64,000 nt of DNA, taken from the NCBI RefSeq assembly GCF_050920415.1, contig NZ_CP169309.1. One strand, written 5' to 3'. A program made the position numbers. Source of the DNA: Escherichia coli (GTDB lineage: Bacteria; Pseudomonadota; Gammaproteobacteria; Enterobacterales; Enterobacteriaceae). This document shows positions 46,801 through 49,800 of the stretch, piece by piece. Position 1 is the first letter of the stretch; each line of letters opens with the position of its first letter.

Positions 46801-49800
46801 CTGGGACGAATGGGCCGATGAAAATGGCGACCTCGGTCCGGTGTATGGTAAACAGTGGCGTGCCTGGCCAACGCCAGATGGTCGTCATATTGACCAGATC
46901 ACTACGGTACTGAACCAGCTGAAAAACGACCCGGATTCCCGCCGCATTATTGTTTCAGCGTGGAACGTTGGTGAACTGGATAAAATGGCGCTGGCACCGT
47001 GCCATGCATTCTTCCAGTTCTATGTGGCAGACGGCAAACTCTCTTGCCAGCTTTATCAGCGCTCCTGTGACGTCTTCCTCGGCCTGCCATTTAACATTGC
47101 CAGCTATGCGTTACTGGTACATATGATGGCGCAGCAGTGCGATCTGGAAGTGGGTGATTTTGTCTGGACCGGTGGCGACACGCACCTGTACAGCAATCAT
47201 ATGGATCAAACCCATTTGCAATTAAGCCGTGAACCGCGCCCGCTGCCGAAGCTGATTATCAAACGTAAACCTGAATCCATCTTCGACTACCGTTTCGAAG
47301 ACTTTGAGATTGAAGGCTACGATCCGCATCCGGGCATTAAAGCGCCGGTGGCTATCTAATTACGAAACATCCTGCCAGAGCCGACGCCAGTGTGCGTCGG
47401 TTTTTTTTACCCTCCGTTAAATTCTTCGCGACGCCTTCCCGAAATTTTGCAACCTCCTGCAACGGCGTAAATAGTCCGGAAGATGCGCCGAAGAAATAGA
47501 AACTGGCCCTCGTCTTTTTTTCTCCTCGCTCCATACTGCCGGCATGAAAACACAACGTGGTTATACGCTGATTGAAACGCTGGTCGCGATGCTGATTCTG
47601 GTCATGCTAAGCGCAAGTGGACTCTATGGCTGGCAATACTGGCAGCAGTCGCAACGGCTATGGCAAACCGCCAGCCAGGCGCGGGACTATTTGCTCTATT
47701 TACGTGAAGATGCCAACTGGCATAACCGCGACCACAGTATCAGCGTTATCAGGGAGGGGGCGTTATGGTGCCTTGTGAGTTCCGCGGCTGGGGCCAATAC
47801 CTGTCATGGCAGTTCACCATTGGTCTTTGTGCCTCGCTGGCCCGAAGTCGAAATGAGCGACCTGACACCTTCGCTCACTTTCTTTGGCCTGCGCAATACC
47901 GCTTGGGCCGGACATATTCGCTTCAAAAACTCAACGGGAGAGTGGTGGCTGGTGGTTTCGCCGTGGGGAAGACTCCGGCTTTGTCAGCAAGGAGAAACAG
48001 AAGGATGCCTGTAAAAGAGCAAGGTTTTTCTTTGCTGGAAGTGTTGATTGCTATGGCGATCAGTAGCGTATTGTTGCTGGGGGCAGCACGCTTTCTGCCT
48101 GCGTTACAGCGTGAAAGTTTAACGAGCACCCGTAAGCTGGCGCTGGAAGATGAAATCTGGCTGCGGGTATTTACCGTCGCGAAGCATCTCCAGAGGGCGG
48201 GTTATTGTCATGGCAGCTGTACCGGCGAAGGGCTGGAAATTGTCGGACAGGGGGACTGTATCATTGTGCAGTGGGATGCGAACAGTAACGGTATCTGGGA
48301 TCGCGAACCGGTAAAAGAGTCCGACCAAATTGGATTTCGTGTGAAGGAGCATGTGCTGGAAACGCTACGCGGTGCGACATCCTGTGAAGGTAAGGGCTGG
48401 GATAAAGTCACTAATCCGGATGCCATCATTATCGACACTTTTCAGGTTACCCGACAGGATGTCAGCGGTTTCTCGCCGGTGTTGACGGTTAATATGCATG
48501 CTGCCAGCAAGGCTGATCCACAAACTGTGGTGGATGCCAGCTATAGCGTGACAGGATTCAACCTGTGAACCGCGAAAAGGGTGTTTCGTCACTGGCTCTG
48601 GTCCTTATGCTGCTGGTTTTGGGTAGCTTGCTATTGCAAGGAATGAGTCAGCAGGATCGCAGTTTTGCCTCTCGCGTGAGCATGGAAAGTCAGTCATTGC
48701 GCCGCCAGGCCATCGTTCAGTCGACGCTGGAGTGGGGAAAAATGCACGCCTGGCAGACGCAGCCCGCAGTTCAGTGCTTACTGTACGCTGCCACCGGTGC
48801 CCGGGTTTGTCTGCGTTTATTGGCAGATAATGAAGCCTTATTGATTGCCGGTTATGAAGGCGTTTCGTTGTGGCGAACAGGCGAAGTCATCGATGGAAAC
48901 ATTGTTTTTTCGCCACGCGGCTGGAGCGATTTTTGTCCGCTGAAAGAGAGGGCGTTATGTCAGCTTCCCTGAAGAATCAACAAGGCTTTAGCCTGCCGGA
49001 GGTGATGTTGGCGATGGTGCTGATGGTGATGATTGTCACTGCGTTATCGGGTTTCCAGCGAACATTAATGAACAGTCTTGCCAGTAGAAACCAGTACCAA
49101 CAGCTCTGGCGGCATGGCTGGCAGCAAACGCAACTGCGCGCGAATTCGCCACCTGCCCACTGGCAGGTCAACCGAATGCAGACATCGCAGGCGGGATGTG
49201 TCAGCATCAGCGTTACGCTAGTTTCACCCGGGGGCAGAGAAGGCGAGATGACCCGCCTGCATTGCCCGAATCGTCAGTAGTCAGGAGCCGCTATGTTAAG
49301 GGTCTACCATTCCAATCGTCTGGACGTGCTGGAAGCGTTGATGGAGTTTATTGTCGAACGCGAACGGCTGGACGATCCTTTCGAACCAGAGATGATTCTG
49401 GTGCAAAGTACCGGTATGGCGCAGTGGCTGCAAATGACCCTGTCGCAAAAGTTTGGTATTGCGGCAAACATTGATTTTCCGCTGCCAGCGAGCTTTATCT
49501 GGGATATGTTCGTCCGGGTGTTACCGGAGATCCCCAAAGAGAGCGCCTTTAACAAACAGAGCATGAGCTGGAAACTGATGACTCTGCTGCCGCAACTGTT
49601 GGAGCGCGAAGACTTTACCCTGTTGCGGCATTATCTGACTGACGATAGTGACAAGCGAAAACTGTTCCAGCTTTCTTCAAAAGCGGCGGACCTGTTTGAC
49701 CAGTATCTGGTCTATCGTCCGGACTGGCTGGCACAGTGGGAAATAGGACATTTGGTTGAAGGGCTGGGAGAAGCACAGGCCTGGCAAGCGCCGTTGTGGA

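Follow-up and report, generated by a model that had tools for sequence, protein, structure and literature searches.

Minor pilin genes directly upstream of recC in Escherichia coli and a candidate recC promoter within ppdC

Immediately upstream of recC, the Escherichia coli chromosome carries four short, overlapping genes, ppdA, ppdB, ygdB and ppdC. This arrangement raises the question of what the four pilin-like proteins do and how recC is expressed behind them. We analysed the locus in a 64,000-nucleotide stretch of contig NZ_CP169309.1 (NCBI RefSeq assembly GCF_050920415.1), hereafter called the window. With a probability of roughly 0.85, we read the four genes as encoding the core minor pilins of the E. 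coli chromosomal type IVa pilus or DNA-uptake machine, expressed from a Sxy-dependent promoter, with a recC promoter buried among them and read-through into recC. The locus itself is already known as a textbook-annotated core cluster, and its published role is that of the minor-pilin priming set of a Sxy-controlled pilus; only the buried recC promoter candidate and a -10-like sequence that stands before ppdA in place of a Shine-Dalgarno (SD) motif are possibly new. Gene structure, conservation, motifs, two protein folds and nucleotide-level constraint in ppdC are direct results of this analysis, and priming activity, Sxy induction and the phenotype of the Haemophilus influenzae counterpart comNOPQ are taken from the literature. 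From these we infer which subunit corresponds to which, where the two promoters lie and that transcription reads through into recC.

A preliminary description of the window had the four genes overlapping one another by 10, 4 and 16 nt and ending 12 bp 5' of recC. The open reading frame (ORF) list, the sequence and the K-12 annotation show this to be correct to the base (ppdA/ppdB 10 nt, ppdB/ygdB 4 nt, ygdB/ppdC 16 nt; ppdC-recC gap 12 nt), and the RefSeq record of K-12 MG1655 (b2826-b2822) has the same lengths, overlaps and gap. The K-12 genes ppdAB-ygdB-ppdC (b2826-b2823), used in type IVa pilus reconstitution work on enterohaemorrhagic E. coli (EHEC) and K-12, are thus the same locus with allelic differences only, namely 2 amino-acid changes in PpdA, 8 in PpdB, 8 in YgdB and 2 in PpdC, at a nucleotide identity of 95-98.5%. 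Coordinates of all features are collected in Table 1.

All four proteins begin with a short basic leader that ends in Gly(-1), after which about 20 residues form a hydrophobic stretch. To follow these features across species, one genome per species was scanned with RecC residues 1-300, which yielded 80 Enterobacteriaceae loci with a RecC identity of 76-99%. The leader glycine is invariant in 80-81 species in PpdA (G6), YgdB (G6) and PpdC (G10), and at least 90% conserved in PpdB (G7). In PpdA it is followed by [YF]TLIE, with both Gly-1 and Glu+5 conserved, and Glu+5 is likewise present in PpdB (F[ST]LLE) and PpdC (FSLPE). PpdA and PpdB both match Pfam N_methyl and TIGR02532, PpdA also matching NCBIfam PRK10506 at 2e-74; PpdC matches Pfam T2SSppdC at 4e-30, N_methyl, TIGR02532 and NCBIfam PRK10332. 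Each of these three proteins falls in its own equivalog family (Pfam/NCBIfam). The gene names, from "prepilin peptidase-dependent", go back to earlier experiments.

A pilin-like N-terminus had been claimed for every one of the four genes, and this is right for PpdA, PpdB and PpdC but only partly so for YgdB. YgdB keeps the leader glycine and the hydrophobic stretch, but it lacks Glu+5, its sole family match is DUF2509, and no N_methyl match was found at E up to 0.1. The leader reads MNRxxG followed by xSSL[AL]MVLLLL, with Ala or Leu and never Glu at +5 in 80/80 species. Loss of Glu+5 is the hallmark and known exception of the GspK/PilX member in minor-pilin quartets. Because YgdB keeps Gly-1 and never has Glu+5, it is a candidate for the GspK/PilX position, as an atypical, Glu5-less minor pilin. 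DUF2509 is a small, lineage-restricted family: when 1.84 billion cluster representatives were searched exhaustively with a profile, no more than 206 relatives in total came up at E up to 0.001, and a word-indexed protein search with the YgdB profile returned close Enterobacteriaceae relatives only, every one of them named DUF2509. Remote members of the family, for which the exhaustive search was needed, retain the glycine leader and two cysteines, along with the motifs AL.WG and, at the C-terminus, GW.D.CP.

AlphaFold2 models of YgdB and PpdB, built on the Enterobacteriaceae alignments of this analysis, both predict the pilin fold, a long N-terminal alpha-helix lying on an antiparallel beta-sheet. 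The YgdB model (predicted local distance difference test score, pLDDT, 92.3) has a single 58-residue helix and a five-stranded sheet, and its closest structural matches are minor pilins, GspK among them. The PpdB model (pLDDT 88.4) is GspJ-like, and on this model PpdB is a minor pilin of the GspJ/PilW class. For PpdA, the sequence profile matches solved pilins over the N-terminal helix only, and a GspH match (residues 4-72, E = 0.002) lies under the family cut-off. Models in a 2025 study give E. coli PpdA a FimT/GspH-like fold and show conserved basic residues in it (PMC12616744), and if these published models are right, PpdA would be a minor pilin of the FimT/FimU/GspH class. The DNA-binding minor pilin FimT of Legionella pneumophila belongs to the same fold class, and the basic residues are conserved in PpdA (PMC12616744); by this analogy we hypothesize that E. 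coli PpdA may bind DNA. No match to the PpdC sequence profile was found among solved structures, and PpdC is a minor pilin, probably the GspI/PilV-class member of the set.

The preliminary description regarded the set as functionally obscure, a view that is outdated given published work on PulG priming, PpdD pilus assembly and the Sxy-regulated comNOPQ counterpart. When placed on a plasmid together with hofB, hofC, hofMNOPQ and gspO, the four ppd genes assemble PpdD pili (bioRxiv 10.1101/856302), and in a mutant lacking pulHIJK function PpdAB-YgdB-PpdC are reported to initiate the assembly of PulG fibres (Cisneros 2012, as cited in PMC5131608). The description was right to suppose a minor-pseudopilin set whose machinery is encoded elsewhere: the families agree, and K-12 carries distant ppdD-hofBC and hofMNOPQ loci (114-117 kb and 3519-3523 kb). 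Its question of which machinery could use these pilins has a published answer in PpdD, HofB, HofC and HofMNOPQ. These machinery loci are as prevalent as the ppd cluster, with ppdD-hofBC in 5424 and hofMNOPQ in 5425 E. coli genomes and the ppd cluster in 5425 of 5426 complete genomes. The absence of a neighbouring assembly ATPase or secretin is correct as far as genes for type IV pili and for a type II secretion system (T2SS) are concerned; the window does, however, contain an ETT2 type III SctN ATPase gene and the end of a SctC secretin gene 35-47 kb upstream, which belong to a different machine. Luna Rico et al. reportedly reconstituted the EHEC type IVa pilus in 2019 with the same gene set.

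In the mechanism that we propose, PpdA, PpdB, YgdB and PpdC would enter the inner membrane through their N-terminal helices and be cleaved after the conserved glycine by a prepilin peptidase (GspO or PppA) encoded elsewhere. The resulting minor-pilin complex would start polymerisation of the major pilin PpdD and finish at the fibre tip, with the ATPase HofB, the platform protein HofC and the HofMNOPQ alignment complex and secretin as the remaining machine parts, and PpdA could be the part that contacts DNA. The four genes would form one unit with a promoter between the thyA terminator and ppdA, which would stay off unless Sxy (TfoX) and cAMP-CRP turn on the competence regulon. Translation would be coupled through the 10/4/16-nt overlaps, and ygdB, which lacks a ribosome-binding site in most species, would restart at the ppdB stop codon. 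With no terminator before recC, induced transcription would continue into recC, and basal recC expression would come from a weak promoter in the 3' end of ppdC.

The ppd proteins might instead be pseudopilins of a T2SS, the cryptic E. coli Gsp, rather than pilins of the PpdD pilus. The Pfam name T2SSppdC, weak NCBIfam matches to GspH and GspJ, structural matches to the T2SS proteins GspJ, GspK and GspI, and the ability of the Ppd set to prime the T2SS pseudopilin PulG (Cisneros 2012, as cited in PMC5131608) all fit such a role. T2SS operons, however, have their own gspH-I-J-K genes; the ppd genes are reported to be co-regulated by Sxy with ppdD and hofMNOPQ, and their H. influenzae counterparts are competence genes. 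Since the Ppd set also supports PpdD pili with HofB, HofC and HofM-Q (bioRxiv 10.1101/856302), the cross-priming is best read as a shared mechanism, and we consider a T2SS assignment highly unlikely. The likeness to GspH-GspI-GspJ-GspK (PulHIJK, XcpUVWX, EpsHIJK) is nonetheless close: both sets are quartets in which one member lacks Glu5 and GspJ-like and pilin-like folds occur, and priming of fibre assembly is common to both, the E. coli set being able to replace PulHIJK for PulG (as cited in PMC5131608). They differ in gene order (H-J-K-I in the ppd set on the proposed correspondence, H-I-J-K in T2SS), in the absence from YgdB (135 aa) of the large helical domain of GspK (~280-330 aa), and in that the ppd genes lie apart from their own ATPase, platform and secretin genes and, unlike T2SS genes, are regulated by a competence signal. 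Compared with Pseudomonas aeruginosa FimU-PilV-PilW-PilX and Neisseria PilH-I-J-K, core minor pilins of type IVa pili, the ppd locus lacks a PilY1 or PilE partner and encodes far smaller proteins, for which a role in twitching or adhesion is not known in commensal E. coli.

The closest parallel to the whole arrangement is H. influenzae comNOPQ (HI0938-HI0941), which we compared through published descriptions of Pasteurellaceae loci. There, four pilin-like genes of similar size lie 5' of recC in the same orientation, are regulated by Sxy through CRP-S sites and are needed for DNA uptake (PMC1635313, PMC12616744); in-frame deletions of comN-Q abolish H. influenzae DNA uptake (PMC12616744). Cameron & Redfield described in 2006 that four "prepilin peptidase dependent" genes adjoin recC in both Pasteurellaceae and Enterobacteriaceae, and treated the ppd genes as orthologues of H. 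influenzae pulG(comN)-HI0941, members of the CRP-S/Sxy competence regulon (PMC1635313). The 2025 study likewise describes the comNOPQ-recC arrangement as conserved and the E. coli operon as Sxy-regulated (PMC12616744), and names ppdA as the most strongly Sxy-induced gene, in its citation of Sinha 2009 and Jaskolska & Gerdes 2015. The two sets differ in that sequence similarity is too low for BLAST (PMC1635313), with PpdA and ComN 18% identical (PMC12616744), and in that E. coli, unlike H. influenzae, has no natural competence unless Sxy is forced.

Within Enterobacteriaceae, ppdA-ppdB-ygdB-ppdC lie immediately 5' of recC on the same strand in 80/80 species, with thyA within reach in 74. The exact 10/4/16/12 geometry recurs in 41 of the 80 and the others show slight variants; because of this recurrence, and because the genes are under purifying selection (ratio of nonsynonymous to synonymous differences, pN/pS, 0.06-0.22), the geometry is not due to chance. 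Single junctions are more constant still: the ppdC-recC gap is exactly 12 nt in 68 species (7-15 nt over all 80), the 4-nt overlap of ygdB with the ppdB stop is present in 77, and GTG is the ygdB start codon in 55. Conservation of this kind bears on whether the ppd genes could be silent, decaying relics, kept only as carriers of a recC promoter between two essential or important genes. It is true that no natural inducing condition is known, that PpdD pilin was found in 0/72 ECOR strains, and that lesions occur occasionally: one Escherichia sp. carries an in-frame stop codon in ygdB, and a different genome has taken up an element of the IS21 family. The Ppd proteins also evolve fast, with identities across species of 33-77% vs 90-100% for ThyA and 76-99% for RecC, or 76-100% for the flanks together. 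Against decay, all four reading frames are intact in 79/80 species, with leaders, cysteines and junction geometry kept; pN/pS is not near 1; the cluster is all but universal among E. coli genomes; and the proteins are active when expressed (bioRxiv 10.1101/856302; Cisneros 2012, as cited in PMC5131608). We therefore think it extremely unlikely that the genes are relics.

How, then, is the cluster transcribed? The thyA gene ends in an intrinsic terminator whose RNA folds at -16.6 kcal/mol (z = -2.66). Its hairpin and T-run are conserved across 74 species, with compensatory exchange of CCGACGC/GCGTCGG for CCGGCGC/GCGCCGG. Since this terminator is strong and conserved, it shuts the ppd genes off from thyA transcription, and they need a promoter in the 135 bp 5' of ppdA. 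Phylogenetic footprinting identified TTCG, TTCC, TTTGCAAC and CTGCAAC as the best-conserved intergenic blocks, and TTCG...TTCC forms one conserved block at 47425-47439. This region and the K-12 ppdD promoter (TTCTTCGTAACGCCTCGCAAAT ... CTGCAACG) are collinear, with 21/26 positions matching, a score reached by 16 of 2000 shuffles. In that promoter (L004 5660-5700, minus strand), CTGCAACG lies at the same distance from the CRP-S-like block as TGCAAC does upstream of ppdA. ppdD is experimentally Sxy/CRP-dependent, and the CRP-S-like site in its K-12 promoter is a placement proposed here. By this comparison, the conserved region upstream of ppdA would act as a Sxy/CRP site, and the TGCAAC repeats may serve as a -35 region common to the two promoters or as a so far unrecognised element related to Sxy. 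The ppdA candidate is a poor match to the CRP-S core, and for that reason neither the site nor the transcription start is placed with confidence. Within 47409-47543, TGCGA-N6-TCGCA was not matched even when 3 mismatches were allowed, and over the whole window the core pattern at the same tolerance gave 265 matches vs 268 expected, which is uninformative. A consensus scan of 47200-49600 for promoters and terminators returned no promoter; its four terminator-like hits were all intragenic and no more than expected from shuffles, and it missed the thyA terminator that folding confirmed.

Translation signals differ sharply among the five genes. SD-like motifs were counted in 1 of 81 sequences for ppdA, 65 for ppdB, 10 for ygdB, 79 for ppdC and 81 for recC, and the block CAGTAGTCAGGAG around the recC SD is conserved. 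Given the 4-nt overlap with the ppdB stop and the few SD motifs, ygdB likely depends on termination-reinitiation coupling, and is probably translated in this way. In the usual SD place before ppdA there is instead a CATACT(G) hexamer, in which A2 and T6 are at least 95% conserved. This motif ends 6 nt 5' of the first base of the ppdA start codon, placed as a -10 hexamer would be if the mRNA were leaderless. The lack of an SD in 80/81 sequences, together with this -10-like hexamer, might partly explain why the pilus has been difficult to express.

Published accounts of recC conflict, one describing it as a separate operon (PMC12342828) and another listing ppdAB-ygdB-ppdC-recC as a single operon in which recC is the fifth gene (PMC3936743, whose supplement gives only control coefficients). 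No transcript ends for the locus appear in the portions of the SMRT-Cappable-seq and Cappable-seq supplements that are available as text. Because the 12-nt gap is too short for a terminator, a ppdA transcript must enter recC. The competence genes assayed (ppdD, yrfD) are, however, undetectable without forced Sxy expression, and RecC is present at ~4.7 molecules per cell in ordinary cultures (PMC6536506). Because RecC is made while the assayed competence genes are silent, recC needs its own start inside the ppd genes. Co-transcription of recC with the ppd genes, which the preliminary description inferred from their tight coupling, thus keeps the terminator-free gap and one paper's operon in its favour, but it has against it the silence of the assayed genes without Sxy, the presence of RecC and a promoter-like element in ppdC. 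In its strict form, recC would lack a promoter of its own and depend for expression entirely on being the fifth and last gene of a ppdA-recC operon; conserved adjacency, the gap and the operon listing in PMC3936743 speak for this. With about 5 RecC molecules per cell while the assayed Sxy-dependent genes are off, recC called a separate operon in PMC12342828 and a conserved promoter-like footprint in ppdC, we judge it unlikely. Co-transcription from ppdA to recC only under Sxy induction is plausible, and recC with its own promoter while the ppd genes are silent is probably the normal laboratory state. A reported sigma-54 site in recC is antisense and irrelevant here.

An alignment of the 420 nt 5' of recC from 81 sequences revealed two fully conserved blocks within ppdC, CAGACA (49179-49184) and TGTGTCAGCATC (49197-49208). 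Among amino-acid positions conserved to at least 95% for which synonymous codons exist, we counted those at which the codon itself is fixed. In ppdC this was so for 6 of 21 positions, compared with 8 of 202 in thyA, 4 of 162 in recC, 0 of 33 in ppdA, 0 of 36 in ppdB and 0 of 23 in ygdB (12/456 for these five genes pooled). All six fixed ppdC codons fall in the CAGACA and TGTGTCAGCATC blocks. The two hexamers are spaced by 17 nt in 79/81 sequences, and the end of the element lies 85 nt from the recC ATG in 74/81. The element reads as a weak sigma-70 promoter, with CAGACA as the putative -35 and TGtCAGCAT as the extended -10, and transcription of recC is predicted to start close to A49215, an invariant base that corresponds to about 2,962,506 on the minus strand of K-12 NC_000913.3. 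That RecC is so scarce agrees with a weak promoter. Most simply, then, the ppdC element is probably a buried recC promoter. In the remote genomes that carry the cluster 5' of recC, the Enterobacteriaceae element is absent and the ppdC-recC gap is 80-134 nt, consistent with an ordinary intergenic recC promoter. An overlapping gene as the cause of the invariant block was rejected, since the length of the ORF from ATG 49196 differs between species, ranging from 5 to 92 codons.

The same constraint could have another cause: the element could be a site for a dimeric regulator, an antisense promoter that silences the ppd genes (minus strand CTGACA-17 nt-CTGCAT, with a TG), or a signal in the ppdC-recC transcript for RNA processing or for binding of a small RNA or Hfq. 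It does lie within a near-palindrome, ATGCAGACA-N14-TGTCAGCAT, whose 9-nt arms form an inverted repeat with a single mismatch across a 14-nt spacer; the minus-strand -35 CTGACA (5/6) is better than the plus-strand one; and Hfq peaks occur on recC-ptrA-recB-recD mRNAs (PMC12342828). However, the plus-strand -10 has the critical A at position 2 and the minus-strand CTGCAT does not. As an RNA structure the block fares poorly: variation in the three outermost pairs of the putative hairpin is confined to one side, the two blocks are not paired with each other in the minimum-energy fold, the region folds no better than shuffles (z = +0.38), and the invariant block has no Rfam match. In addition, recC requires a promoter within the ppd genes, and the ppdC element is the only nucleotide-level footprint found there. 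We therefore regard a function other than a recC promoter as doubtful.

An internal promoter combined with conditional read-through offers a testable reconciliation of the two published accounts of recC. Tentatively, in Enterobacteriaceae, a housekeeping promoter of recC may have been absorbed into ppdC, which would hold six codons of an otherwise fast-evolving protein constant in at least 79 of 81 sequences; transcription that starts at ppdA under Sxy induction would read through it, and the near-palindrome might permit an antisense start that aids silencing of the pilin genes. If this were true, RecC supply, and with it RecBCD activity on incoming DNA, would be wired transcriptionally to the DNA-uptake machine.

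Table 1 Features of the ppd-recC locus, in window coordinates.
Feature	Position	Strand	Description
thyA intrinsic terminator	47377-47408	+	11-bp stem, 6-nt loop, T8 run
Candidate ppdA upstream control region	47422-47463	+	conserved; weak CRP-S-like candidate and two TGCAAC repeats
CRP-S-like candidate TTCTTCGCGACGCCTTCCCGAA	47422-47443	+	weak; TTCG(C/A)-N6-TTCC(C/A) at 47425-47440, C6 present, G17 absent
TGCAAC direct repeats	47448-47453, 47458-47463	+	10 bp apart, one helical turn
CATACTG	47532-47538	+	directly 5' of the ppdA start codon, in the usual Shine-Dalgarno place
ppdA	47544-48014	+	ATG start, TAA stop; 156 aa; from ORF list and raw sequence
ppdB	48005-48568	+	ATG start, TGA stop; 187 aa
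ygdB	48565-48972	+	GTG start, TGA stop; 135 aa
ppdC	48957-49280	+	ATG start, TAG stop; 107 aa
Candidate recC promoter in ppdC	49179-49207	+	CAGACA (-35), 17 nt, CAGCAT with TG (extended -10)
recC Shine-Dalgarno AGGAG	49283-49287	+	in the 12-nt gap after the ppdC stop; read from the sequence
recC	49293-52661	+	ATG start; 1122 aa; RecBCD gamma subunit; downstream neighbour; from ORF list and annotation

The cluster is flanked by ptsP-lgt-thyA upstream and, beyond recC, by ptrA-recB-recD-argA downstream. Strain MFDS1022581 is identical to the window over 47360-49300 (1.9 kb), near-identical elsewhere and annotated alike. Linkage of the ppd genes to recC extends to two more distant genomes, with RecC N-terminal identities of 67% and 57%. 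In the former, GCA_000169615.1 (L092 3463-5412), an IS21-family element (transposase and IstB) lies between ppdA and ppdB, and the ppdC-recC gap is 134 nt. In GCA_964496225.1 (L088 4884-6994), a four-gene PpdB/DUF2509/T2SSppdC cluster follows spoT/recG and precedes rpsT-ribF-ileS, with no recC nearby; because this cluster adjoins recG instead, the linkage to recC is not universal. The ygdB orthologue with an in-frame stop, from Escherichia sp. MOD1-EC7003 (L007 1156-1560), is 95% identical to that of the window and is either a pseudogene or the product of a sequencing error. The GTDB species representative "E. coli" SCPM-O-B-8794 (L006) shares only 92-95% identity with the window across thyA and recC, at a synonymous difference (pS) of 0.23-0.31, and so resembles a cryptic Escherichia clade more than true E. 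coli. High within-species divergence of the ppd genes was rejected, as this strain is divergent everywhere (nucleotide identity 94.8% in thyA and 92.4% in recC).

Elsewhere in the window, positions 1-20200 hold the ETT2 type III secretion island (the sctC end, sctV-, sctN-, sctR/S/T/U-, prgH- and sctI/J-type genes, and ygeH), in which genes are frameshifted or partial in the closest annotated genome. An IS2 copy at 10770-12103 lies ~8 kb further on, and inverted, in MFDS1022581. Six Chi sites (GCTGGTGG), all on the plus strand, are found at 38178, 47948, 49805, 53043, 55894 and 60054, where 1.2 would be expected by chance; one lies within ppdA and one within recC, reflecting the usual excess and strand bias of Chi in E. 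coli.

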